Below, piece by piece: positions 1,961 to 54,613 of a DNA stretch of 64,000 nt. The stretch comes from Dehalococcoidia bacterium. GTDB lineage: Bacteria; Chloroflexota; Dehalococcoidia; Lucifugimonadales; Australimonadaceae. Under the pieces are notes generated by a model that was not told the origin of the DNA, made no database searches, and worked only from the letters and a program-made list of their open reading frames with translations. The position numbers and the translations under genes were made by a program. How positions within the stretch are numbered: position 1 is the stretch's first letter; each line of letters starts with the position of its first letter. Where the stretch lies: contig OZ252105.1 in assembly GCA_965248455.1 (NCBI GenBank), forward strand, positions 1,754,737 to 1,818,736, read 5' to 3'.

Positions 1961-3118
1961 TTAACTGACGCTGATGGTAATGCCGATAGCTTCCGCCGCC
2001 GAAACGATCGTGTCGGTCTGGTTTTCCAGCGCAACGATGGTGTTCAGGACTGCCATACGCCCGGCGGAGGCGTCCGACACACCCTCACGCAGATGCTGGT
2101 CGAACGGCGCGGGGATCGCATTGGCGAGGCTGACGCTCCGCCGTATCTCGTCCTCCAACTGCTGGGCGAGTTCCTCGTCCTCTGCAGCGATCAGATCCAT
2201 CACGCCGGGGCCGGAAACGCTGCCGTAGTCACCGGTGTACACCAGCCAGACGCCGGTGGCGTTGGCGATGATGTCAGCAGTGGTGTTGTCCGCGAAGCAG
2301 GAGTGCTCGTCCTCCTGCGAACGCGCCTCGTAGGCGACCGCCATTCGCTCGCCTGCGAGCTCGCCCCTGCTCATCTCACCGATGCCGGTGATTATTCGTC
2401 TGAGCGCTTCGTCCGGGTCAACGGATAGGAACTCCGCGCGGTAGTTCCCGCTTTCACCGGGCGCCCAGGCGTCAACCATGTCGCGCAGGTGACGCACAAG
2501 CACGTCCGACGCGGTGGCGAGGTAGGCAGCGCGCCGCTCTGCGTTGGCCTTCGTGGTGTAGTCCTCCAACGGGCGCAGGCCGGGGCCGTCGTCGTTCATG
2601 TCCTGTCCCCAGAGCAGGAACTCGATGGCATGCCAGCCCGTGGAGATGTTTGCCTCGCCGCCTTCCTCGTTGAGGGAGACGATCAGGTCTGCGTCGATAA
2701 CCGGGAAGTCGCCGGGGTTGTTGATGATGCCCGCGTCTGCATCGCCCTCGACGTAGTCGACGTACGCCTCGTCGAGAGGCCACGCGTTGACCAGCCCTTC
2801 AGGGCCGTCTTCCTCATTGTCTATCGGGCCGTCGTAGAACCGGTATATCTCGGTGGGGCCGTAGTCGTCGCGGGCGAGCAGCCACGCGCGCTTCGCAGCA
2901 TCGAGCCGCACCGCCGACGGGGCCGCGAGGAAGCGGTCGATGGCCGCATCCAGCGTCTCGGCGCTCGCGAGGCTCTTCGAGTACATCGCGTGCGCGCCGT
3001 CGGCGTAGTTTCGTACGACGTCCTGCTTCAGGTCGTCGTCTGCTCCTCCACCGCTGCAGGCCGCCACCAGGCCGCCAATAACCGTGAGGAGTACGCAGAG
3101 AATCGCTAACTTACGCAT
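1961..3118 (-). CDS. Imelysin family (peptidase M75-like, IrpA-like) lipoprotein
   Basis: ORF 1961..3202. The internal start MRKLAILCVLLTVIGGLVAAC-SGGG is preceded by GGAGG. Contains an HAIEFLLWGQD imelysin-type motif. Confidence 0.8.
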   Translation of the reverse strand: MRKLAILCVLLTVIGGLVAACSGGGADDDLKQDVVRNYADGAHAMYSKSLASAETLDAAIDRFLAAPSAVRLDAAKRAWLLARDDYGPTEIYRFYDGPIDNEEDGPEGLVNAWPLDEAYVDYVEGDADAGIINNPGDFPVIDADLIVSLNEEGGEANISTGWHAIEFLLWGQDMNDDGPGLRPLEDYTTKANAERRAAYLATASDVLVRHLRDMVDAWAPGESGNYRAEFLSVDPDEALRRIITGIGEMSRGELAGERMAVAYEARSQEDEHSCFADNTTADIIANATGVWLVYTGDYGSVSGPGVMDLIAAEDEELAQQLEDEIRRSVSLANAIPAPFDQHLREGVSDASAGRMAVLNTIVALENQTDTIVSAAEAIGITISVS

Positions 3119-3217
3119 CAGTCGTCCTCCATGAGTTGAATCGAAACCGGACAACGTGGTTGACCGGCTCGTGCTGGTTGGTGATGAGTGACACAAGGGC
3201 ATTTACGTCCCTTGCCC

Positions 3218-3688
3218 TCACTCTCGGATGTTCTGCGCGAGGTAGTGCTCGGTGCCGACTTGGCGGATGGTCTCCTGCTGTGTCTCCAGCCAGTCGACGT
3301 GTTCCTCCTCTTCGCGCACCATGTCCTCCAGTATCTCGCGCGTGCCGAAGTCGCCTACTTGCTCGCAGTGCGCGATGGCCTCTGCCAGCGTCTCCAACGC
3401 CGACATCTCGGACTCCAGGTCCAGTTGCAGGTTTTCCTCAACGCTCTCGCCGATCTTGATCGGACCCAGACGCTGGAGGTTCGGCAGTCCTTCGAGGTAG
3501 AGGATGTGCCGCACGAGCTTCTGCGCGTCGCGCATCTCATCCATGCTGGCCTCGCGCATCTTCTCGGCGGTGCGCAGGAATCCCCAGTTCCGCACCATCT
3601 CGGACTGGATGAAGTACTGATTGATCGCGGTCAGATCTATCGTGAGCAGCTCGTTGAGACGGTCTACTATTCCCTCCCTGGCTTTCAT
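3218..3688 (-). CDS. bfr: Bacterioferritin
   Basis: ORF 3218..3787 trimmed to MKAREGIVDRLNELL... (157 aa). Ferritin-like di-iron residues are present (E..EMRDAQKL..., EEEEHVDWLE). Confidence 0.9.
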   Translation of the reverse strand: MKAREGIVDRLNELLTIDLTAINQYFIQSEMVRNWGFLRTAEKMREASMDEMRDAQKLVRHILYLEGLPNLQRLGPIKIGESVEENLQLDLESEMSALETLAEAIAHCEQVGDFGTREILEDMVREEEEHVDWLETQQETIRQVGTEHYLAQNIRE

Positions 3689-3750
3689 GTGTCCTCCTTG
3701 TGAGCAGCGTATGCCCTGTGCGTGAACCATCGGGCGAGGTGCTCCTGTGC

Positions 3751-3802
3751 ATACTGAGTATATACATAAGTATTGACAACTATGCAAGATAGGGTGTACT
3801 AA
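3751..3802. promoter_or_regulatory. Divergent bfr/bfd control region: tandem palindromes plus a TTGACA-N17/18-TACTAA promoter for bfd
   Basis: ATACTGAGTAT (3751-3761) and ATACATAAGTAT (3762-3773) are adjacent palindromes in the only AT-rich patch of the intergenic region. TTGACA lies at 3773-3778 and GTACTA/TACTAA at 3796-3802. Confidence 0.3.
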
Positions 3803-3835
3803 CTACCACAAGCAATGCTGACGTAGGAAAACGCC

Positions 3836-4033
3836 ATGTACGTATGTGTGTGCAACAGGATCTCCGTCCGTGAGTTGGCTGCGTCCTGGGCGGAGACGAA
3901 CCCTGACCTGGACCGTTTGGCCGAGAGGCTGGGGCTCTACAACGAGGAGTGCTGCGGGCGCTGCGCGGACGAGTTGGACGAACTCGTCGACGTAGCCGAA
4001 TGTTCAGCCTTGTCTGCCGGAGCCGCGCGATGA
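3836..4033 (+). CDS. bfd: Bacterioferritin-associated ferredoxin (BFD-like [2Fe-2S] domain)
   Basis: 65 aa. MYVCVCNRIS...CCGRC gives the C-x-C...C-x-x-C pattern typical of Bfd. Divergent from bfr. Confidence 0.85.
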   Translation: MYVCVCNRISVRELAASWAETNPDLDRLAERLGLYNEECCGRCADELDELVDVAECSALSAGAAR

Positions 4034-4224
4034 AACTCGGATGGAAGCGTCCCGCCAAGCCAGCCCCGACCGGTGGTGCGCCGGGCGCTGAACCCTGCAA
4101 TCACCGGTTTGCCCGGCACATCCGCCGCAGGAGCTACTGGGTGCGTTCCACCTTGATGACGGACACCAGCGTCGTCTGCTCCAACTGCGGTCAGCCCATC
4201 AACGGCCAACGCTCCGCCCGTTAA
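4030..4224 (+). CDS. Possible small basic protein (64 aa) translationally coupled to bfd
   Basis: Its ATG overlaps the bfd stop (ATGA at 4030-4033). It is in frame with ORF 3949..4224 and ends ...CSNCGQPINGQRSAR. No recognisable family. Confidence 0.25.
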   Translation: MKLGWKRPAKPAPTGGAPGAEPCNHRFARHIRRRSYWVRSTLMTDTSVVCSNCGQPINGQRSAR

Positions 4225-4317
4225 GCCGGTGCCTCCGAGCGGTTCCTTCTATAAGGACTTCCCAGCGAAAAGTTCGCAGTACCGTACGCTCCGGCCCGCC
4301 ACTTCCATCGACCCAGA

Positions 4318-4530
4318 ACTCCTGCCCCCTGCGCTGTGCCCTGACTTCGCCTTCTAGTCCGGGTTGCGGCGTGGAAGCATGCTCGCCGTCCAAAGCTTGG
4401 CCGTGATGCGCAGCTTCTCCCCGGAGGAGAGCCGCACGCGCTCGCGGTAGACATCGAAGCCTCGCTGTTCCATGCGGTCGAGCAGCCGGCTGTAGAGGCC
4501 ATGGAGGATCGCCGAGCACGCGCGCGACCG
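4318..4530. repeat. Direct repeat, left copy (hpnD 3' end plus 36 bp of downstream flank)
   Basis: 213 bp aligning without indels to 6946..7158 (offset 2628 bp), with 9 mismatches by manual alignment. Confidence 0.95.
4354..4530 (-). pseudogene. Orphan 3' fragment of a presqualene diphosphate synthase (hpnD-like) gene
   Basis: ORF 4354..4662 ends ...RSRACSAILHGLYSRLLDRMEQRGFDVYRERVRLSSGEKLRITAKLWTASMLPRRNPD. This is nearly identical to the C-terminus of the intact gene at 6982..7860. The upstream part of the ORF is unrelated. Confidence 0.85.
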
Positions 4531-4685
4531 TCCCATACTCCCTAAGAGGCTGACGCTGCTCGGAAAACGGCTGGGTGTGCTCAGCAGTGCAGCGACGCTT
4601 AGACTACTCCCATGATGTCTAGCGCGCTCAGGCTCAGTCGTACACCATGGGTCCGGCGCCACAGCAAACGGGCAGGTGTAACGCG

Positions 4686-5312
4686 CTAGTTGACGCGGAG
4701 CACCCAGACTTGGTGTTCCACGTCCGGTTCACCTGTGGGCATCACGTGCTGCGGGTCAGTGGCTTCCACTATCGTCAACGCGTCCGTCGCTTCCAGTTCC
4801 GCGTGCTTTTCTCTGAAACCATTCTCCGCATACACGTCCGGGCGAAGGGAATAGACGATGTAGCCGCCGGACTTCGTCACACGCACCAACTCGTCCAGCG
4901 CGCTGGCGGGCGCGTGGCCCACCGTGAACACTCCAACGCTCACCACGGCGTCAAAGCTGTCCGTTGCGTAGTCCAGGGTTTCGCCCAACACCATCTGGTC
5001 GTAGCTCTCGTAAGCCTGGGTCTTCCTGGCCACGTCCAGCATGCCTTCCGAGAGGTCCATGGCCACCAGCGAATGGTAGCCCCTCTCCTTGAGGACGCGG
5101 CCCACTAGTCCCGTGCCGGCGCCGGCGTCCAGGATGCGCGCGCGCGGCGGCACGTACCTCTGGAGAACCCCTGCCGCCAGCTGGGGGGCGGTCCACCCAA
5201 AGTCGCGCTCCAGGTCTGAGTCATAGTCCTCCGCCCATATGTCATAGCGGGACCGCAACTCGGTGACATCCGCGGATGAGTATATCCACTGCACTCTATT
5301 GTCATCTGTCAT
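4686..5312 (-). CDS. Class I SAM-dependent methyltransferase
   Basis: 208 aa. Motif I is ILDAGAGTGLVG. The N-terminal YDIWAEDYDSD is typical of small-molecule methyltransferases. Confidence 0.8.
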   Translation of the reverse strand: MTDDNRVQWIYSSADVTELRSRYDIWAEDYDSDLERDFGWTAPQLAAGVLQRYVPPRARILDAGAGTGLVGRVLKERGYHSLVAMDLSEGMLDVARKTQAYESYDQMVLGETLDYATDSFDAVVSVGVFTVGHAPASALDELVRVTKSGGYIVYSLRPDVYAENGFREKHAELEATDALTIVEATDPQHVMPTGEPDVEHQVWVLRVN

Positions 5313-5359
5313 GGCGTCTGCCTTGAGATTGGTTGAATGTTCAGGAGGGATTCCATCGG

Positions 5360-6187
5360 TTAACCTGCCGCCTCCGCCACGTAGAGACCCCAGCCGAGCT
5401 CCTCCCGGTCTACGGCCTCCACCATCTTGCCGTAGGCGAACGACAAGGCGGTCAGTTTCTCCTCGAGCTCGCCACGGGCATGTTCCCTGGCCTTGGCTTC
5501 CAGCATCTGATAACTGCGCTTCAGGTACGCGGAGAGGTTCTCGGCTTCCAGGATGGTGAAGCCGGTTTCCCGCAGGTAATCCTGATAGCCGGTGAAGCTG
5601 AAAGGCGTGTCAAAGAGAAGCCGGTCATAGACGTACTGGCGGGACTCGGCGCTCACCTCCGGCTTGGGCTTCAGCAGGTCGTCCAAGACCAGCAGGCCGC
5701 CGTCCTGCAGTACACGGCGAACCCCCTGGATGGCCGCCTGCTTGTCAGGGATATGGTAGATGGTAGCTTGGCTCCATACATGAGTGAACTCGCCGTCCGC
5801 AAAGGGCAACTCGGTGGCGGAGCCATGCTGGAAGCGCAGCAACTGTTGCAACTCCTTCGGTTCCTCGGTTGCCATCTCCTGTGCGTTGGCGATGCGGACG
5901 CCGCTCAGGTCGATGCCTGTGACCCGGCACCCGTACGTTCTGGCCAGCCACAGAGACGTGTTGCCGTTCCCGCACCCCAGGTCCAATACGTGGGCGCCTG
6001 CGGTGATGCGGGCCTTCGCCGCCATCACCGCGTCGAGACGAGCGCAAGCCTTCAAGAAGTCCCCATCCGTAGTCTCGTCGAAGTAGCCCCAGTGCAGGCT
6101 GCCCTCCGCATCCCAGAAGGAGCGGTAGATGGCGTCTTCGATATCGTAGAACTGCTCGGTCTCGGCTTCGCTAAACTGGCTGTTCAT
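5360..6187 (-). CDS. SAM-dependent methyltransferase of the sarcosine/dimethylglycine-N-MT, sterol/tocopherol-MT-like group
   Basis: ORF 5360..6286 trimmed to MNSQFSEAETEQFYD... Shows FYD..YRSFWD..SLHWGYF, then VLDLGCGNGNTSLWLA, HVWSQATIYH and VLQDGGLLVLDD. This layout recalls SDMT-type enzymes from memory. Its start overlaps the panD stop. Confidence 0.75.
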   Translation of the reverse strand: MNSQFSEAETEQFYDIEDAIYRSFWDAEGSLHWGYFDETTDGDFLKACARLDAVMAAKARITAGAHVLDLGCGNGNTSLWLARTYGCRVTGIDLSGVRIANAQEMATEEPKELQQLLRFQHGSATELPFADGEFTHVWSQATIYHIPDKQAAIQGVRRVLQDGGLLVLDDLLKPKPEVSAESRQYVYDRLLFDTPFSFTGYQDYLRETGFTILEAENLSAYLKRSYQMLEAKAREHARGELEEKLTALSFAYGKMVEAVDREELGWGLYVAEAAG

Positions 6188-6551
6188 ACTTACGCGTCCT
6201 GATATTCGTCCTGAGGTAGTCCACGAATCGGTTGTCCTCGTCCACGAGGATCTGCTTGGGCTCCAGGGGCTCGTCGGTGAGCTCATAGGCCAGAATCACG
6301 ACACAGTCGCCCGGCTCGCACAGGCGCGCGCCCGGGCCCTGCACGGCGATGGATCCAGAGCCGTATGCTGCTGGCAGGACGTAGGTCTCCCAGCGGTTGC
6401 CGTTGTTGACGTTGCAGATGACGACCTGTTCGTACTCCCACAGGTCGCACTTCTCCATGAGCGCCCGATCGATTTCCACGCTGCCGACATAGTCCAGCCC
6501 TGTGCCGGTGACATACCCTCGGTGAATCTTGGATTTCAATACTGTGCGCAC
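6171..6551 (-). CDS. panD: Aspartate 1-decarboxylase (pyruvoyl-dependent)
   Basis: 126 aa. MRTVLKSKIHRGYVTGTGLDYVGSVEID carries the self-processing G-S site. GTG start preceded by AGGAGG. Confidence 0.9.
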   Translation of the reverse strand: MRTVLKSKIHRGYVTGTGLDYVGSVEIDRALMEKCDLWEYEQVVICNVNNGNRWETYVLPAAYGSGSIAVQGPGARLCEPGDCVVILAYELTDEPLEPKQILVDEDNRFVDYLRTNIRTRKYEQPV

Positions 6552-6797
6552 GGCATCCTCCTAGTAATTCGGTTAGATCGAAGCCTAGGGAAGACGGCAG
6601 AGTGACCAATCAGGGAGAGACGGTCCACAGCCCCAGGCCAGCAATCGTAAGTCTCGGAGCGGTCTATCAAGCTCTGCCGAGGTGCAAGAACGTAGCCGCA
6701 GCTGCTAGTTGGGCTGAACGGCGTACGGCACTACAGAACCGACGCTCCAATGGTTTAGCGGTAGCGGCATAGTAGGTGGGTCGGTGGGGGGTGTCAA
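6552..6797 (-). promoter_or_regulatory. Promoter (TTGACA-N17-TACTAT) and ~210-nt structured 5' leader of the panD-MT-MT cassette
   Basis: On the minus strand, TTGACA is at 6797-6792 and TACTAT at 6774-6769. The leader has long-range complements (CGGCAGAG/CUCUGCCG, GGAGCG/CGCUCC) and a CCCUAG segment able to pair with the CUAGGAGG SD. Confidence 0.4.
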
Positions 6798-6945
6798 GGA
6801 AAGGTGCTCGTTCCTTACATACGAGACGGCGGAATCTGCCCCCTGCTCGGGGAGGACAGTGCAGACGAGAGCACCCCTCTAGGGCTGTCGACCACCCCAC
6901 TCCTTCCCGCGGGGGAGGAGGTTGAGCGCGACCGCAGCAACGGCC

Positions 6946-7158
6946 ACTCCTGCCCCCTGCGCTGCGCCCTGATTGCGCCTTCTAGTCCGGGTTGCGGCGT
7001 GGAAGCAGGCTCGCCGTCCAAAGCTTGGCCGTGATGCGCAGCTTCTCCCCGGAGGAGAGCCGCACGCGCTCGCGGTAGACGTCGAATCCCCGCTGTTCCA
7101 TGCGGTCGAGCAACCGGCTGTAGAGGCCATGGAGAATCGCCGAGCACGCGCGCGACCG
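6946..7158. repeat. Direct repeat, right copy (inside and just downstream of intact hpnD)
   Basis: Pairs with 4318..4530. Confidence 0.95.
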
Positions 7159-7860
7159 GGGCGAGAGGTAGGCCAGCAGCGTCTCACCCGACCGGAAGTA
7201 CTCGCGGGCGCGCTCGGCTTCGAAACGCATCATCGCGGCGAAGGCGTCGTTCACGAGACCCCGCATCAAGTCGTCCTCGGTATAGCCGAACCTCTTCAAG
7301 TCCTCCTGCGGAAGATAGACCCGGCCCGCATCAGCGTCCTCCCGAACGTCCCGCATGATGTTGGTGAGCTGCATGGCAAGACCCAGGTCCACGGCTGCCG
7401 CCGGGGCTCGCGGGTCGGTATAACCGAATATTTCGATGGAGATGAGCCCCACCACCGACGCAACGTGGTAGCAATACTCGCGCAGCTCGTCGAAGGTCTC
7501 GTAGCGGCGCGGCGCAAGGTCCATCTCGACGCCGTCGATGAGCTCCTCGAAGAGCGCCGGGTCGATGCCGTACTCATCCGCCGCATGGGTCAGCGCAACC
7601 AGAACGGGCCCCTGGGGCTGTCCTGCGAACGCTTGCCGTAGGTCCGCGCGCAGCTCGCGGAGCAGCTCCGTCTTGTCGGCGTTCGACGCATCGCCGTCTG
7701 CGATGTCGTCGGCGAGCCGAGCGAAGGCGTAGGCCGCGTAGATGGCGCGCCGCCGCCGGGCAGGTAGCGTGACGAAGGCGAAGTAGAAGTTGCGCGCCTC
7801 CCGCTTCGTGACCGCCTGGCAGTAGTCGTAGGCAGCGGCGATAGCAGGGGCAGTGGTCAT
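6982..7860 (-). CDS. hpnD: Squalene/phytoene synthase family, HpnD-like presqualene diphosphate synthase
   Basis: ORF 6982..7908 trimmed to MTTAPAIAAAYDYC..., giving an ATGA overlap with the upstream gene. Shows YAFARLADDIAD and YCYHVASVVG...DVRED motifs. Confidence 0.8.
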   Translation of the reverse strand: MTTAPAIAAAYDYCQAVTKREARNFYFAFVTLPARRRRAIYAAYAFARLADDIADGDASNADKTELLRELRADLRQAFAGQPQGPVLVALTHAADEYGIDPALFEELIDGVEMDLAPRRYETFDELREYCYHVASVVGLISIEIFGYTDPRAPAAAVDLGLAMQLTNIMRDVREDADAGRVYLPQEDLKRFGYTEDDLMRGLVNDAFAAMMRFEAERAREYFRSGETLLAYLSPRSRACSAILHGLYSRLLDRMEQRGFDVYRERVRLSSGEKLRITAKLWTASLLPRRNPD

Positions 7861-8777
7861 GCGGCCCTCCGCAGCGCCAGCCGCAAGGCCGTGGACGCCA
7901 TGAGCCATAGCTTGCGGCCGGAGGTGACGACAGGACGGTTCGTCAACACGTCGTACTGCTGGCGGCGTATGGCTTCGAGGATGCTCATGCCGCCCTTGGT
8001 GAACAGGGCGATATCGAGCTTGAACCGGCCATCGAGGCGCTCGATGAGCGCGTAGCCCTGCTCGAATAGCTGCTGGGCGCGGTCCACCTCGAACGCCATC
8101 AGCTTCCGCAGATTGTCGTTAACCACGCCCGCTGCCAGGCTCTCTTCGGTGTAGCCGAAGCGCTCCATATCCTCCAGCGGCAGATAGATGCGGCCCATGT
8201 CGTGATCCCGCTTCACGTCCTGCCAGAAGTTGGCCAGTTGGAGTGCGGTACAGGTCGCATCGGATAGTTGATGGCTCTCCTCGGATCGATCTCCGAGCAC
8301 GTAGAGCACCATGTGCCCCACGGGGTTCGCCGAGTGGTCGCAGTAGTGCAGAAGGTCGTCATACGTGGGAAAGCGAACCTTCCCCTGATCCATGCGATTC
8401 GCCTGAATGAGCTTGCGGAACGGCGTATCGGGGATATCGAAGCGGCGAATGGTGTCCTGGAGCGCGACCACGATGAGGTGCGATGGCTGACCGCCGTAGG
8501 CTTGCGCGAGCGCCTCCTCCCACTCGCTGAGCTGGGCGAGCCTGTCGCCCGAGGCCTCGTCGCCGAGGTCGTCGGTCTGGCGGCAGAAGGCGTAGACGGC
8601 GTAGAAGTAGGGTCTCACGCTGCGAGGCAGCAGCAGCGAGCCGACGGTGAAGTTCTCGTAGTGGGCCTTGGCTAGACGCTCGCAGTGGGCGTATGCCTCG
8701 TCCAGACCGGGCGGCTTGCCGATGGCGCGATGCGTTGCCACGCTTGCTCCGGCAAGGGGAGTAGGGCTTACGGTCAC
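7857..8777 (-). CDS. hpnC: Squalene/phytoene synthase family, HpnC-like hydroxysqualene synthase
   Basis: 306 aa. AHYENFTVGSLLLPR and YAFCRQTDDLGDE are typical of HpnC. First gene of the hpnC-hpnD pair. Confidence 0.8.
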   Translation of the reverse strand: MTVSPTPLAGASVATHRAIGKPPGLDEAYAHCERLAKAHYENFTVGSLLLPRSVRPYFYAVYAFCRQTDDLGDEASGDRLAQLSEWEEALAQAYGGQPSHLIVVALQDTIRRFDIPDTPFRKLIQANRMDQGKVRFPTYDDLLHYCDHSANPVGHMVLYVLGDRSEESHQLSDATCTALQLANFWQDVKRDHDMGRIYLPLEDMERFGYTEESLAAGVVNDNLRKLMAFEVDRAQQLFEQGYALIERLDGRFKLDIALFTKGGMSILEAIRRQQYDVLTNRPVVTSGRKLWLMASTALRLALRRAA

Positions 8778-8878
8778 ATGAACACCGCTTGAGCGTGTCC
8801 AGGGCGACCGTTCAGACCGTGAGGCACGGCACTTACGCCACCCCTCGCCAATCTAGGTACGTCAGGCGGGAGTATACC

Positions 8879-9922
8879 TCACTTATCACGCGTGACGAAA
8901 TAATCCGCCATCGCCTGGATGCTCTCCTTCGCCTCGGACGGGAGCTGAAGCCCTTCGAGCGCATCCATCGCGCCGGAGGCTTGGCTGACCGCGGTCTGCT
9001 GCACAACCGCCTCGCTGTCGAGTTCAGCGAGCAAATCGAGAACGCGCTCGATGTCGTCGCCCGCCACCTCCTCCGCGGCGTAAGCGGTTCGGAGCCATTC
9101 GCGCTGCGCATCGTTCGCGCGTTGGAACAGGTGGACGATGGGCATGCTCTTCTTCTTGCGCTTGATATCGGAGCCGACCGGCTTACCCGTCGCCGCCGGG
9201 TCGCCCCAGATGCCGAGCAGGTCGTCGCGCACCTGGAATGCAAGCCCGAGCTTACGTCCGCACGCGCCGAACGCCTCCGCCGTCCTGGCGTCGCCGGTGG
9301 CCACCAGCGAGCCGAGGTACATGGCGCAGTCGATGAGCGCGCCCGTCTTGCGCGAGATCATGTCAAGGTAGGCGTCAGTCGTGACGTCGTCGGAGTCCTC
9401 GAAGGACATGTCCAGGTACTGGCCTTCGATCATCTCGACGTAGCGCGATGTCAGCGCGAGGGACGCCGCCATGACGGTGGACGCCGCAAGGCCGGTCTCC
9501 GACAGCGCCAGGAGCGTCTGATCGGCCACGACGCGCATCGCGTTGCCGGCGGCAATAGCCTCGTGGACGCCGAACACCGTCCACGCCGTCGACCGGCCTC
9601 GCCTTGTCGTATCCCTATCCTGGATATCGTCGTGGAGCAGTGAGAAGTTGTGGATAAGCTCCAGCGCCGCAGCGGCGGGGAGAGCGTCATGCCAGTCGCC
9701 GCCGTTGATCTCGCAGGACGCAAGCACGAGCACGGGGCGCAGCCCTTTGCCCGCGTCCTCGGCGGCGGGGTTGCCGTCGCGATCCTGCCACCCAAGGTGG
9801 TAGCGCAGCATGCTGAAGAGGCCGGTCTCGGAGTCGGGCACCGAGCGTCGAACCTGCTGCCTGATGTCAGCGGTGTACCGCTCGACGAGAGCTGCAACCC
9901 GACGTTCGGAGGAGACGGTCAA
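8879..9922 (-). CDS. Polyprenyl diphosphate synthase (FPP/GGPP synthase family)
   Basis: 347 aa. First aspartate-rich motif LLHDDIQDRD and second DDLLGIWGD. Confidence 0.9.
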   Translation of the reverse strand: MTVSSERRVAALVERYTADIRQQVRRSVPDSETGLFSMLRYHLGWQDRDGNPAAEDAGKGLRPVLVLASCEINGGDWHDALPAAAALELIHNFSLLHDDIQDRDTTRRGRSTAWTVFGVHEAIAAGNAMRVVADQTLLALSETGLAASTVMAASLALTSRYVEMIEGQYLDMSFEDSDDVTTDAYLDMISRKTGALIDCAMYLGSLVATGDARTAEAFGACGRKLGLAFQVRDDLLGIWGDPAATGKPVGSDIKRKKKSMPIVHLFQRANDAQREWLRTAYAAEEVAGDDIERVLDLLAELDSEAVVQQTAVSQASGAMDALEGLQLPSEAKESIQAMADYFVTRDK

Positions 9923-9948: not shown

Positions 9949-11850
9949 CTATCCGGCTGCGGCTTCCCGATTCCTCTGCGGCGACGCTCCTGGGAAGAAG
10001 GCAGTCAGGATCTGCTGGACGATACCCTCTGCGTCCAGCTCCAACCGGTGCCTCTGAGCAGCCGCAGTGCTGTGCTCGATGAAAGAGTCAGGGAAGCCGA
10101 TGCGGTGAACCGACACATCCTCCATCCCAGCCTCGGCAAGCGCCTCGAGCACGGCGGAGCCGAACCCTCCAGCCAGCACGTTCTCTTCCACGGTAACGAT
10201 GCGCCGCGTGCTGCGGGCCGCGTCCAGCAGCAGTTCAGTGTCGAGAGGCTTCACGAAGAGCGGGTTCACGACGCCGCATACGATGCCGTACTCGGCGAGC
10301 TTGTCCGCCGCTTCCACAGCCGCGCTGCCCGGCTTGCCCAGAGCGAAGATAACGACATCGCGCCCCTCCCTGACCACCGCGCCGCGTCCGAGCGGCAGCT
10401 GCCGCAGGTTCTTGTCGAGCGGCGCGCCGGTGGCCGCGCCCCTCGGTATGCGGATGGCGAAGGGGCCCGGGTGCTTGTACGCGGTGTAGATGAGATGCTG
10501 CAGGTCGTTCTCGTCCATCGGAACCGCAACGATTGCGTTGGGGATGCACCGCAGGTACGAGATATCGAACGCGCCGTGGTGCGTCTTGCCGTCCTCGCCA
10601 ACGATACCGGCCCGATCGGCGATCAGCGTCACGGGCAGGTTCTGTAGGCAAACGTCATGCACGATCTGATCGAACGCCCGCTGGAGGAAGGTGGAGTAGA
10701 TCGAGACGAAGGGATGGAGGCCGGAGGAGGCCATGCCCGCCGCCATGCTGACGGCATGCTGCTCCGCGATGCCCACGTCGAAGACTCTGCTGGGGAACTC
10801 GTGCCGCACTTCCTCCAGCCCCGTGCCTTCGAGCATCGCCGCGGAGATACCGACGACGGATTCGTCGTCGCGCATGAGGCGCTGAATGGTCTGCGCGAAC
10901 ACCTTCGAGTAGGTGGGCGCTCCCGTCGAGGCCCCCAGAGGCGAACTTGGCTGGTGAAATCTGATGGGGTCGTCCTCGGCTGGCTCGTAGCCGTGCCCCT
11001 TGTGCGTCACAACGTGGATCAGAGGGACGGAGCCGGTGGGTATTCTGGCTTGCCGGAGCGTCTCTTCGAGCTGCTTGATATCGTGGCCGTCCACGGGACC
11101 GAGGTATTGGAATCCCAACTCGGTCCAGAACGTGGTGGGCACGATGATGCTGTCCAGCCCGCCACTGAACCTCTTGACGAGCCGGTAAACCATGTCGCCC
11201 GTAGGCACCCTCTTCGATAGCGCCTTCATGCGCCCGATCATCGCCTGGTACTCGGGGTGAGTGAGCACGCGTTTGCGCCAGTTGGTGAGGAAGCCGATGT
11301 TCTCGGAGATGGACATGCCGTTGTCGTTCAGAACGACAACGAACTTCTCCGGGTTGAGATGCACGATATTGTTCAGCGCCTCGAAGCTCGAGCCTGACGT
11401 CATCGCCCCGTCGCCCACCACCGCGATGGTCCAGGAGTCCGCCTTCCGGTTCGCCGCGCCTTGCGCTATGCCCAGAGCTATCGAAAGGCCCGTGCCGGCG
11501 TGCCCTGCCGCGAGAGTGTCATGTGGGCTTTCGCTCGGTTCCCCGAACCCGGACAGCCCGCCCTCCAGGCGGATGGCCTGGAACTCGTCGCGCCGCCCCG
11601 TCACCAGCTTGTGCGTGTAGCACTGGTTGGTCGTGTCCCAGACGATGCGGTCGATGGGGCTGTCGAAAACGCGGTGGAGCGCCAGCGTAATCTCAACGAC
11701 CCCCAGGTTCGACGCTAGGTGGCCGCCGCGCTCGGTTATCACAGAGATGATGGTGTCTCGAACCTCTTGCGCAACCTGAACCAGCTCCGCTCGAGTCAGA
11801 GCCTTCAGGTCGCTCGGTGCATCGATCTGGTCCAACAGACGGCTTACCAT
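9949..11850 (-). CDS. dxs: 1-deoxy-D-xylulose-5-phosphate synthase
   Basis: 633 aa. The N-terminus LLDQIDAPSDLKAL..., the GHAGTGLS TPP-binding region and the overall length are typical of Dxs. Confidence 0.95.
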   Translation of the reverse strand: MVSRLLDQIDAPSDLKALTRAELVQVAQEVRDTIISVITERGGHLASNLGVVEITLALHRVFDSPIDRIVWDTTNQCYTHKLVTGRRDEFQAIRLEGGLSGFGEPSESPHDTLAAGHAGTGLSIALGIAQGAANRKADSWTIAVVGDGAMTSGSSFEALNNIVHLNPEKFVVVLNDNGMSISENIGFLTNWRKRVLTHPEYQAMIGRMKALSKRVPTGDMVYRLVKRFSGGLDSIIVPTTFWTELGFQYLGPVDGHDIKQLEETLRQARIPTGSVPLIHVVTHKGHGYEPAEDDPIRFHQPSSPLGASTGAPTYSKVFAQTIQRLMRDDESVVGISAAMLEGTGLEEVRHEFPSRVFDVGIAEQHAVSMAAGMASSGLHPFVSIYSTFLQRAFDQIVHDVCLQNLPVTLIADRAGIVGEDGKTHHGAFDISYLRCIPNAIVAVPMDENDLQHLIYTAYKHPGPFAIRIPRGAATGAPLDKNLRQLPLGRGAVVREGRDVVIFALGKPGSAAVEAADKLAEYGIVCGVVNPLFVKPLDTELLLDAARSTRRIVTVEENVLAGGFGSAVLEALAEAGMEDVSVHRIGFPDSFIEHSTAAAQRHRLELDAEGIVQQILTAFFPGASPQRNREAAAG

Positions 11851-12433: not shown

Positions 12434-12436
12434 TGT

Positions 12437-12508
12437 GGGCATTAGCTCAGTCAGTTAGAGCGTCGCGTCCACATCGCGGAAGCCAGAGGTTCGAGTCCCT
12501 ACCGCCCA
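12437..12508 (+). pseudogene. Degenerate tRNA-like sequence (anticodon-loop TCCACAT, Val-CAC-like)
   Basis: The D-arm GCTC-AGTCAGTTA-GAGC is intact. Defects: a 1-nt deletion in the 5' acceptor strand, acceptor mismatches, C at position 33, and the same aberrant T-arm as the other copies. No TATACT promoter in front. Confidence 0.4.
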
Positions 12509-12692
12509 TCACCGCTATCGGCCCAGGACTCCTGACCCCTGCGCTGCGGTTCAATTCCGCCTTCGAGTGCAACAACGGGACTCCGGCAGCGACGTACCAG
12601 CCTGAGCCGAAGCGAAGGTCAGCGGCTCTTCTCCCTCCGAACATCACGGGGCACGGAGGCCGAGCCTCAGCAGACATGCGGACGTGAACCGC

Positions 12693-12722
12693 TGGACTGC
12701 CCTGCGAGGCCAACCCTATACT
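12693..12722 (+). promoter_or_regulatory. Putative promoter of tRNA-like copy 2 (TGGACT-N18-TATACT)
   Basis: TATACT at 12717-12722, 11 nt upstream of the tRNA-like 5' end. The same module precedes copy 3. Confidence 0.35.
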
Positions 12723-12733
12723 CGAAAGACTGT

Positions 12734-12806
12734 GTGCGATTGGCCCAGCTGGCTAGAGCGTCGCGTTCACATCGCGGAGGCCAGAGGTTCGAGTCCCTAT
12801 CGCCCA
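12734..12806 (+). tRNA. tRNA-like gene, anticodon CAC (Val), non-canonical T-arm
   Basis: Manual cloverleaf. Acceptor GTGCGAT/ATCGCCC pairs 6 of 7 (U2-C71 mismatch). U8, A14, G18G19 and A21 are present. Anticodon stem TCGCG/CGCGG with loop TTCACAT. The T-loop TTCGAGT has only 4 nt (CCCT) on the 3' side of the stem, which requires a bulged A51. Confidence 0.5.
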
Positions 12807-12990
12807 TCACCGCTATCGGCTCAGGGCACCTGACCCCTGCGCTACGGTTCAATCGTGCCTTCGAGTGCAACGAGGGGATCCCGACAGCGACGTACCGTCC
12901 TGAGCCGAAGCGAAGGTCAGCGGCTCTTCTCCCTCCGAACATCACGGGGCACGGAGGCCAAGCCTCAACAGACATGTGGACGTGAACCGC

Positions 12991-13020
12991 TGGACTGCCT
13001 CGCGGGGCCAACCCTATACT
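12991..13020 (+). promoter_or_regulatory. Putative promoter of tRNA-like copy 3 (TGGACT-N18-TATACT)
   Basis: TGGACT at 12991-12996 and TATACT at 13015-13020. Confidence 0.35.
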
Positions 13021-13031
13021 CGAAAGACTGT

Positions 13032-13107
13032 GCGCGGTTGGTTCAGTTGGTTAGAGCGTCGCGTTCATATCGCGGAGGTCGGCGGTTCGAGTCCCTACCG
13101 CCCGCCA
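13032..13107 (+). tRNA. tRNA-like gene, anticodon CAT (Met/Ile2-type), encoded CCA, non-canonical T-arm
   Basis: Acceptor GCGCGGT/ACCGCCC pairs 6 of 7 (C2-C71). Anticodon loop TTCATAT. T-arm GGCGG-TTCGAGT-CCCT again needs a bulge (C51). G73 is followed by CCA. Confidence 0.5.
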
Positions 13108-13156
13108 CTTCCAGCCTAAGACAGTCGTGGAATTCAACCCAAGTGGAGGCAAATAT

Positions 13157-14019
13157 ATGTCCATCGATGATAAATTGAATAGTATCTCCACTCTAATCGA
13201 GGTAACCACGAGCACTGGTACTTTTCGGGGAACGGGGTTCTTCTACAATCAGTATGCGCCCACGGACAAACAGGGGCTTCAATACCGTCACATTGACGCA
13301 ATGTGGGTTGTGACCAATCGTCACGTATTGCTGCCCGGGCAGCAGGGTGTCGCATTTGCACCTTCAGCAGTGACGCTAAATATTCGCAAACTTACTGAAT
13401 CAGGTTTTATGGTTTGGGAACCGATCAAGTTATCGGCCGAAGAAGTCGAGACCCTTGCACGGTTTCATCCAAATAGGGCTGTAGATGTCGCCGCCATCAA
13501 TATCCTGGATCACTTTATTGAACGGTTCAATTCCAGTGATAAATACGTCGCGCCACATGCGCTTTCAGTTAAGGATCTCCCAGGAGACAATAGCGCAGAT
13601 ATAGAAGTGGCAAGTGACGTAATTATAGTAGGGTATCCAAGAGGCTTTTATGACAAGGTCAATCTCTTCCCCATTGTGAAGTCGGGAATCGTCGCTTCTC
13701 GTTGGGGTGTTGGTTTCGAAGGTAACCCATACTTCCTAATTGATTCCAAGCTGTTTCCAGGCTCTTCTGGGAGTGTGGTACTTTCAAAGCCTAACGATCT
13801 AATGATTAAGAACGGGCAAGTATGTATGCCGCAGAAAAGCATTTTTCGCTTTTGGGAATCTTTTCGGGTGAGCCCCAGTTTGAGGAACCTCCAGTGGAGA
13901 TCGGTGATCTCGTTGTCACACATAAGATCGGCTTTAATCTTGGAGTTGTTTGGTATGGCGAGTTGATTGAGGAGGTCATTTGCCAAGGCGTCCCTCCGAG
14001 CCAGGCATTGGCACCTTAA
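13157..14019 (+). pseudogene. Trypsin-like (S1/Trypsin_2-type) serine peptidase, frameshifted
   Basis: ORF 13127..13966 has an internal ATG at 13157 after GGAGG. It carries GTGFFY..VVTNRHV (His) and FPGSSGSVV (Ser). The reading frame switches near 13810-13835 into ORF 13822..14019 (...LLGIFSGEPQF...GVVWYGELIEEV). The region is visibly lower in GC. Confidence 0.7.
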
Positions 14020-51468: not shown

Positions 51469-54461
<2,993 letters not shown>

Positions 54462-54538
54462 ACTCTTAGGTTTCCTCTGCTCGCTCGATTTCCCTTGTTA
54501 GCGTGCAAACGCTTTCCCTCCTTTCCTATGTCATCCGT

Positions 54539-54613
54539 TGCGGGGTGGAGCAGTGGCAGCTCGTCGGGCTCATAACCCGAAGGTCCCAGGTTCGAGTCCT
54601 GGCCCCGCTACCA
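54539..54613 (+). tRNA. Initiator tRNA-Met (CAT), encoded CCA
   Basis: Canonical cloverleaf. Three consecutive G-C pairs close the anticodon stem (GGG-CTCATAA-CCC). The 1:72 position is unpaired (U1/U72). T-arm CCAGG-TTCGAGT-CCTGG. Confidence 0.9.

Follow-up and report, generated by a model that had tools for sequence, protein, structure and literature searches.

Why does a panD-like gene stand directly before two methyltransferase genes, and away from panB and panC? The question is raised by a stretch of contig OZ252105.1 from a Dehalococcoidia bacterium; the window is the whole 64,000-nt stretch that was analysed. In it, the gene for a PanD-like protein is followed by genes for two class I methyltransferases dependent on S-adenosylmethionine (SAM), here called MT1 and MT2. 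The three genes probably encode a route from aspartate to beta-alanine betaine by stepwise N-methylation, the product serving as a compatible solute. What points to this pathway is the linkage of the genes, a control for the specificity of that linkage, a set of fusion proteins, the residues retained in PanD, and linkage to metK and to betaine-hydroxylase-like genes.

The module and its conservation

The minus-strand order is dxs, a polyprenyl synthase gene, hpnC, hpnD, a 430-nt spacer, panD, MT1, MT2, an orphan hpnD fragment and a bacterioferritin gene (Table 1). An earlier note, made from the sequence alone, had placed the three module genes on this strand, with panD overlapping MT1 and separated from panB and panC. 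The coordinates bear this out: MT1 starts within panD, in an overlap of exactly 17 nt that takes in the panD stop (6171-6173), and the immediate upstream neighbours of panD are hpnD and hpnC. The MT1 start codon, an ATG at 6187, is backed by homologues of 275 amino acids (aa), and 47 nt separate the MT1 stop from the MT2 start. Positions 3000-9000 yielded no terminator-like site, and intergenic gaps within the module do not exceed 47 nt. A sigma-70-like promoter match, TTGACA-17-TACTAT, lies at 6797..6769 and agrees at 10 of 12 positions. The window encodes one PanD.

Is the arrangement peculiar to this genome? A profile search with MT1 of a collection holding one genome per species gave 337 relatives, and the loci of the best 80 were analysed. 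These genomes are nearly all Dehalococcoidia/Chloroflexota metagenome-assembled genomes (MAGs), from soil-like, groundwater, marine and sponge samples. MT1 is adjoined by panD in 70 of the 80, by MT2 in 67 and by both in 61, and the 61 loci span MT1 identities down to 53% and lie between unrelated flanks. The survey of co-occurrence that the earlier note had proposed thus turned out in favour of the panD-methyltransferase link. By far the commonest order is panD-MT1-MT2 (41 loci), followed by panD-MT1 (nine), panD-MT1-MT2-MT2' and panD-MT1-MT1'-MT2 (eight each), MT1-MT2 (six) and MT1 alone (four). Two loci have panD-MT2-MT1, and two others (L047 and L049) carry tandem panD-MT1 units in the order panD-MT1-panD-MT1-MT2. 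At least three methyltransferase genes are present in 18 of the 80. When all neighbourhood open reading frames (ORFs) were clustered, the conserved families were MT1, MT2 and PanD only; the flanks turn over completely, and no transporter, regulator, ligase or terpenoid gene recurs in them.

Does any panD gene attract such neighbours? A motif scan intended to isolate methyltransferase-linked PanDs was rejected for that use, as its motif (E56) is common in canonical PanDs, and it served as a negative control. The control set comprises 120 PanD loci from metagenomes, drawn by the PanD motif. About 113 of the 120 encode the canonical Asn at residue 72 (N72; E. coli numbering), and in none of these is MT1 or MT2 adjacent. 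Two control loci encode Gln at this position (Q72): one (L097) reads panD-MT1-MT2, and the other (L180) has no methyltransferase gene in about 570 nt after panD. Because canonical N72 control PanDs never adjoin MT1 or MT2, the linkage is, to judge from these loci, specific to the Q72 PanD subfamily and upheld by selection, not by ancestry alone.

The PanD-like protein

The PanD-like protein scores 123.8 bits against the Pfam family PF02261 (Asp_decarbox; cutoff 25), and its closest match in the Protein Data Bank (PDB) is M. tuberculosis PanD (2c45, E 4.8e-24). An alignment, numbered throughout as in E. coli, set it beside the PanDs of E. coli and M. tuberculosis and 71 homologues encoded at related loci. 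The window protein retains K9, H11, Y22, the G24-S25 pair, R54, T57 and Y58, each of them found in 70-72 of the 72 subfamily members. H21 is replaced by Asp in 61 of the 72. On this alignment, the methyltransferase-linked PanDs are a distinct subfamily, marked by N72->Q and H21->D. In published PanD structures, R54 binds the distal carboxylate. L-aspartate is still the presumed substrate, since R54 and the catalytic residues are retained.

The methyltransferases

All the MT1 motifs quoted in the earlier note were found (FYDIEDAIYRSFWDAEGSLHWGYF, VLDLGCGNG, WSQATIYH and VLQDGG). The best-scoring curated family in NCBIfam is NF041675, sarcosine/dimethylglycine N-methyltransferase (SDMT). An AlphaFold2 (AF2) model of MT1 (pLDDT 90) has an SDMT-type fold that includes the N-terminal lid motif, and its top TM-score, 0.85, is to the putative Galdieria SDMT 2o57. 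AtmM, MitM, RebM and SpnF match the model as well as 2o57 does, so that the fold is not discriminating, and phosphoethanolamine methyltransferases (PEAMTs) are also among the structural neighbours, with TM-scores of about 0.75-0.81. By sequence, the best PDB match is MitM (1.8e-28), with 2o57 at 5e-18. The best solved relatives of MT1 comprise an N-methyltransferase (MitM), sugar O-methyltransferases (AtmM and RebM), SpnF, the Galdieria SDMT and PEAMTs.

MT2 matches the Pfam family Methyltransf_11 with 63 bits. Its best PDB match is human METTL27, also called WBSCR27 (7qcb, E 1e-19), in a printed alignment that spans query residues 21-159. Foldseek ranks WBSCR27 first and a phosphatidylethanolamine N-methyltransferase (PmtA, 8ys9) second; the latter is a triple N-methylating enzyme. 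No glycine/sarcosine N-methyltransferase (GSMT) or glycine N-methyltransferase (GNMT) appears among 25 PDB matches of MT2 or among the 25 best of its 34 NCBIfam matches. The partner of the SDMT-like MT1 in the window is therefore not of the GSMT/GNMT type; a GSMT-like partner was found only in the fusion protein P0288, discussed below. The earlier note had likened the pair to GSMT plus SDMT. The SDMT half of that likeness stands for MT1, and the GSMT half falls, MT2 being METTL27/PmtA-like. Sequence comparison makes MT1 SDMT-like, and not an SDMT.

Do the two enzymes cluster firmly with characterised C- or O-methyltransferases, as would befit another chemistry? They do not: with 23-33% identity, the nearest structures include N-methyltransferases as well as O- and C-methyltransferases. 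Since the structural neighbours are mixed, the fold of MT1 or MT2 cannot fix N- as against O- or C-methylation, and it was dropped as an arbiter for both enzymes.

Fusion proteins and extended contexts

MT1 was searched exhaustively with HMMER against 1.84 billion representative proteins; 69 matched at E <= 1e-30, several of them multi-domain. The most telling is P0288, a 674-aa fusion of PanD, a GSMT-like middle domain and an MT1-like C-terminal domain. The sole PDB matches of the middle domain are GSMT, acting on glycine and sarcosine, and GNMT, acting on glycine; the C-terminal domain is 34% identical to MT1 (E 1e-50). P0288 comes from three named marine Symploca MAGs and three further metagenome contigs, and in all six independent assemblies it is 674 aa long.

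Proteins of about 466 aa are MT1-MT2 fusions, as shown for P0243, whose second domain is 33% identical to MT2 (E 5e-26). What are their neighbours? In L206, the fusion gene lies in an operon with genes for PanD and SAM synthetase (metK). In L208, it is overlapped by a gene for a GBBH-like_N+TauD dioxygenase. Dioxygenases of this architecture are the family that hydroxylates gamma-butyrobetaine. Another fusion gene is followed directly by a class III aminotransferase gene. A 790-aa protein joins MT1, MT2 and TauD, and adjoins a pyridoxal phosphate (PLP)-dependent decarboxylase; in P0252, a dioxygenase is part of the MT1-MT2 fusion. On the AT-rich contig of L207, MT1-MT2 occurs with a dioxygenase, a PLP-dependent decarboxylase and a protein kinase. 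In a Minicystis contig, the fusion gene has a dioxygenase gene adjacent, next to an MscS channel gene. The dioxygenase-coupled fusions could lead to hydroxylated betaines or to compounds like carnitine.

The linked supplier enzymes and the fusions lead to the suggestion that a small omega-amino acid is the substrate of the MT1/MT2 pair and a trimethylammonium compound its product. Where PanD is the supplier, that compound would be beta-alanine betaine.

Proposed pathway and its significance

In the proposed pathway, PanD would cleave itself at Gly23-Ser24 (its own numbering) to give a pyruvoyl enzyme, which would convert L-aspartate to beta-alanine and CO2. With SAM, MT1 and MT2 would then carry beta-alanine through N-methyl- and N,N-dimethyl- to N,N,N-trimethyl-beta-alanine, and this betaine would act as a compatible solute. 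The three methylations would be shared between the two enzymes. MT1 is proposed for the later steps because of the analogy with GSMT and SDMT and because of the order of domains in the Symploca fusion. We infer what the methyltransferases act on, how many methyl groups they add, which steps fall to each enzyme and what role the product has, the last from the chemistry of the compound and from other betaines. The main idea of the earlier note, that two N-methyltransferase-like enzymes receive their beta-alanine from PanD, gains support from the conserved and specific synteny, from the Symploca fusion and from MT1-MT2 fusions near panD, metK and the GBBH-like dioxygenase gene.

Could the pair have a wider role? 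We offer, tentatively, the broader suggestion that MT1 and MT2 represent an unrecognised and widespread omega-amino-acid betaine synthase pair. With a dedicated PanD, the pair would make beta-alanine betaine de novo, as in the 70 of 80 examined MT1 species with adjacent panD (of the 337 found, mostly Dehalococcoidia) and in the one three-domain protein of marine Symploca. With other amine-generating enzymes and GBBH-like dioxygenases, it would make hydroxylated betaines, possibly by a route to carnitine-like compounds that does not depend on lysine.

Papers on plankton and on marine microbial communities mention beta-alanine betaine. It is the nitrogen analogue of dimethylsulphoniopropionate (DMSP) and a possible precursor of trimethylamine. 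If the proposed pathway is correct, these genes would be the first markers for microbes that make this nitrogen-rich osmolyte, and the pathway would have a second, convergent origin. It would also reveal a repurposed PanD subfamily among genes now labelled plainly as 'aspartate 1-decarboxylase' and 'class I SAM-dependent methyltransferase/UbiE'. The three-gene cassette of about 1.9 kb could then be of use in engineering stress tolerance with no need for choline or oxygen. If MT2 methylates a small amine, this may also be a clue that the orphan human METTL27 acts on small-molecule amines.

Points against the pathway, and other explanations

Several findings weigh against the pathway as drawn. 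On the NCBIfam equivalog TIGR00223, the PanD-like protein scores 95.7 bits, below the cutoff of 106, and it has Gln for the conserved Asn72, as have 71 of the 72 methyltransferase-linked PanDs; given both, a shifted substrate is conceivable. The NF041675 score of MT1, 107.3 bits, is far under the equivalog cutoff of 550, and among the solved proteins closest to it are O- and C-methyltransferases as well as a cyclase (AtmM, RebM, TleD and SpnF). MT2 is without an informative characterised relative, as the description of the METTL27 PDB entry names no substrate. In 10 of the 80 genomes, MT1, with or without MT2, has no adjacent panD, and nine of the 80 are panD-MT1 without MT2, the closest relatives of the window among them. 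The nearest relatives L003, L004 and L083, with MT1 identities of 95%, 94% and 97%, respectively, lack MT2. The module is thus not obligatorily tripartite, and its end product may vary by lineage. The clustering of neighbourhood ORFs turned up no betaine transporter or osmoregulator conserved beside it. The 80 loci are also almost all from one class and were chosen via MT1, and part of the synteny is shared ancestry.

How did MT2 come to be missing from the nearest relatives? A 58-nt remnant of MT2, matching window 4867-4924, lies directly after MT1 in L003 and in L004 (8835-8892 in each), and in L083 similarity to the window ends exactly at the MT1 stop. As these alignments indicate, MT2 is repeatedly lost within the clade of the window. 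In such relatives, MT1 may perform all steps alone, or the product may be less methylated.

The latter prospect bears on a first alternative, that beta-alanine is methylated to something other than a bulk osmolyte. The end product might be the mono- or dimethyl compound, a hydroxylated intermediate, a store of nitrogen or methyl groups, or a signal. Gamma-butyrobetaine, which is hydroxylated to carnitine, provides a model for such further processing. The loss of MT2 from the three close relatives would fit this explanation, as would the lack of any conserved transporter, mechanosensitive channel or osmoregulator beside the Dehalococcoidia module; the coupling of some MT1-MT2 fusions to TauD/GBBH-like dioxygenases does imply further processing in those cases. 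However, modules most often have two to three methyltransferases, and the linkage to metK in L206 fits a high-flux methylation. Nor is there a conserved dioxygenase or other tailoring gene beside the module in Dehalococcoidia. We regard a product other than an osmolyte as rather unlikely.

Might the methyltransferases instead act on another amine or acid, for example on glycine to give glycine betaine, or on gamma-aminobutyric acid (GABA), with the adjacency of PanD unrelated and panD serving, for example, the coenzyme A (CoA) pathway? The top curated match of MT1 is indeed an enzyme of the glycine pathway, adjacent panD is absent from the 10 loci mentioned, and the MT1-MT2 fusions near a PLP decarboxylase and a class III aminotransferase suggest that the family may accept several omega-amino acids. 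An unrelated panD is difficult to reconcile with the 17-nt translational overlap of panD and MT1, with adjacency in 70 of 80 loci despite complete turnover of the flanks, and with the tandem duplication of whole panD-MT1 units in L047 and L049. A covalent PanD-methyltransferase-methyltransferase fusion is known in P0288, and it is the Q72 PanD subfamily that is tied to methyltransferases, canonical PanD genes never lying beside them. Another substrate is for these reasons quite improbable, and beta-alanine is preferred.

The hopanoid neighbourhood

Why, then, does the module follow hpnD? Among the loci examined, the junction with the hpn genes was seen only in the window and in L083, which is of the same lineage. 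In none of the 82 other loci screened does HpnC or HpnD occur within 8 kb of MT1. In the window, two direct repeats of 213 nt, 96% identical and with boundaries checked by alignment, bracket a cassette of about 2.4 kb consisting of leader, panD, MT1 and MT2. The translation of copy B corresponds to HpnD residues 238-308 and gives a partial match to TIGR03465; this copy is 98% identical to the hpnD end of L083, closer than to the hpnD end of the window itself. L003 and L004 share the 245 nt before panD at 88% identity, in a homology that begins at the -35 box (6797); in both, the cassette follows a methylmalonyl-CoA mutase gene, a non-hopanoid setting.

From these comparisons, the cassette apparently reached hpnD by recombination, perhaps in a homologous event of the Campbell type or in a duplicative one; it looks unlike a transposition. 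The hopanoid context is, on this evidence, a recent accident of insertion, and the cassette is not functionally tied to squalene synthesis, because the repeats bracket the cassette, the leader is shared with L003 and L004, and hpn genes are absent from the 82 loci. The earlier note had allowed that the methyltransferases might modify a terpenoid or hopanoid made by the products of dxs, the polyprenyl synthase gene, hpnC and hpnD, and the position of the module directly downstream of hpnD on the same strand in the window and L083, together with weak MT1 matches to CMAS, geranyl-diphosphate C-methyltransferase and a chain labelled 24-sterol C-methyltransferase (6f5z, E about 3e-8), would suit that explanation; it is hardly tenable, given the 82 loci without HpnC or HpnD, a cassette set between duplicated hpnD 3' ends and possessing its own promoter-like site and shared leader, the absence of any Sterol_MT_C match in MT1 or MT2 in the Pfam scan, and a PanD left without a role.

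A riboswitch or structured leader upstream of panD was considered and rejected: there was no Rfam match, folding gave z = 0.16 against shuffled sequences, and the region is conserved in the closest relatives only. No hpnE-like gene was seen directly after hpnD, the inspection for hpnE being confined to that part of the window.

Features of the window and of related contigs

Table 1. Positions of the module, its surroundings and the fusion genes referred to in the text
Feature	Sequence	Position	Strand	Remarks
panD-like gene	window	6171-6551	minus	GTG start, 126 aa; ribosome-binding site AGGAGG at 6557-6562
MT1, class I SAM methyltransferase	window	5360-6187	minus	275 aa; SDMT/RebM/PEAMT-like group
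MT2, class I SAM methyltransferase	window	4686-5312	minus	208 aa; METTL27/PmtA-like
Leader and promoter-like region	window	6552..6797	minus	part of the cassette
Direct repeat copy A	window	6946..7158		hpnD 3' end, 177 nt coding and 36 nt downstream; upstream cassette boundary
Direct repeat copy B	window	4318..4530		orphan hpnD 3'-end fragment downstream of MT2; downstream cassette boundary
hpnD, presqualene diphosphate synthase	window	6982-7908	minus	TIGR03465, 297 bits, above cutoff 278.6; context, outside the module
hpnC	window	7857-8777	minus	
Polyprenyl synthase	window	8879-9922	minus	
dxs	window	9949-11850	minus	
Bacterioferritin	window	3218-3787	minus	beyond the orphan hpnD fragment
P0288, Symploca sp. 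SIO1A3 (NER48858.1)	L204	4596-6620		annotated just 'aspartate 1-decarboxylase'
Dioxygenase-coupled MT1-MT2 fusion	L208	210-2743		
Dioxygenase-coupled MT1-MT2 fusion	L207	4641-9322		
Dioxygenase-coupled MT1-MT2 fusion	L211	3518-8192		

Elsewhere in the window, positions 12436-13106 hold three tRNA genes (Val-CAC, Val-CAC and Met-CAT) in tandem units of about 298 nt, with overlapping ORFs that are near-identical in translation. The segment 13100-14500 is low in GC (0.49-0.53, against about 0.63) and carries an ORF at 13127-13966; it is possibly an element integrated at the tRNA array. A complete 23S rRNA gene, followed by a tRNA-Met gene, occupies 51469-54613. No 16S rRNA was found in the 51 kb upstream of the 23S gene, and no 5S rRNA match anywhere in the window, which suggests that the rRNA genes are unlinked in this organism.

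Comparison with known systems

How does the proposed route compare with betaine pathways already described? Glycine betaine is made by GSMT plus SDMT in Halorhodospira halochloris, Actinopolyspora halophila, Aphanothece halophytica and Methanohalophilus portucalensis, and in M. portucalensis the gsmt and sdmt genes are clustered with a SAM synthetase gene (PMC3176816). The module resembles this system in having two class I SAM methyltransferases in one putative operon and, as proposed, three successive N-methylations to a betaine. MT1 resembles SDMT both by sequence and by fold, P0288 of Symploca joins GSMT-like and MT1-like domains, and SAM synthetase linkage recurs, in L206 as in M. portucalensis. 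In A. halophila, the GSMT and SDMT enzymes are fused. Unlike the glycine system, the module has a dedicated decarboxylase, PanD, to supply the substrate, and the expected product is beta-alanine betaine and not glycine betaine; MT2 is related to GSMT/GNMT through the shared fold only.

The plant route is closer in chemistry. In PMC9699165, the beta-alanine N-methyltransferase (BANMT) of Limonium latifolium is presented as a single trifunctional enzyme that trimethylates beta-alanine with SAM to the osmoprotectant beta-alanine betaine. The chemistry and product proposed for panD-MT1-MT2 are the same. BANMT is said to have been described by Raman and Rathinasabapathi in 2003, and it presumably belongs to the plant O-methyltransferase family PF00891. 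The bacterial module differs in having two methyltransferases, neither of which matched PF00891 (Methyltransf_2) at E <= 0.01, and a linked gene for beta-alanine supply. If its function is as predicted from sequence, the bacterial route would be convergent with BANMT.

With canonical PanD of E. coli, M. tuberculosis and B. subtilis, the PanD-like protein shares the PF02261 double-psi beta-barrel, the Gly-Ser cleavage site and K9, Y58, R54 and T57. It departs from them in its TIGR00223 score below the cutoff, in N72->Q and H21->D, in a methyltransferase context instead of one of pan genes, and in its co-duplication with MT1 in some genomes.

Other trimethylations also bear comparison. For Trichodesmium, homoserine betaine is described (PMC6753628) as the product of SAM-dependent N-trimethylation and as the main compatible solute of this marine bacterium. 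It is, as proposed for the module, a non-glycine amino-acid betaine formed by N-trimethylation. A single Trichodesmium methyltransferase, with no linked decarboxylase, reportedly acts on homoserine (Pade and co-workers, PNAS, 2016). PEAMT/PfPMT and bacterial PmtA perform three successive N-methylations of a primary amine, and they include structural neighbours of MT1 (PEAMT) and of MT2 (PmtA 8ys9). Unlike MT1 and MT2 as proposed, these enzymes act on phosphoethanolamine or phosphatidylethanolamine; identity to them is just 17-23%, and the module has no linked genes for lipids or phospho-bases.

Neither a bacterial panD-methyltransferase route nor bacterial genes for beta-alanine betaine synthesis were found in the full-text literature, and plant BANMT was the only enzyme of beta-alanine betaine synthesis found cited in the literature searched. 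The formation of betaines from amino acids by successive N-methylations is well-known chemistry; it is the bacterial, panD-linked route that would be new.

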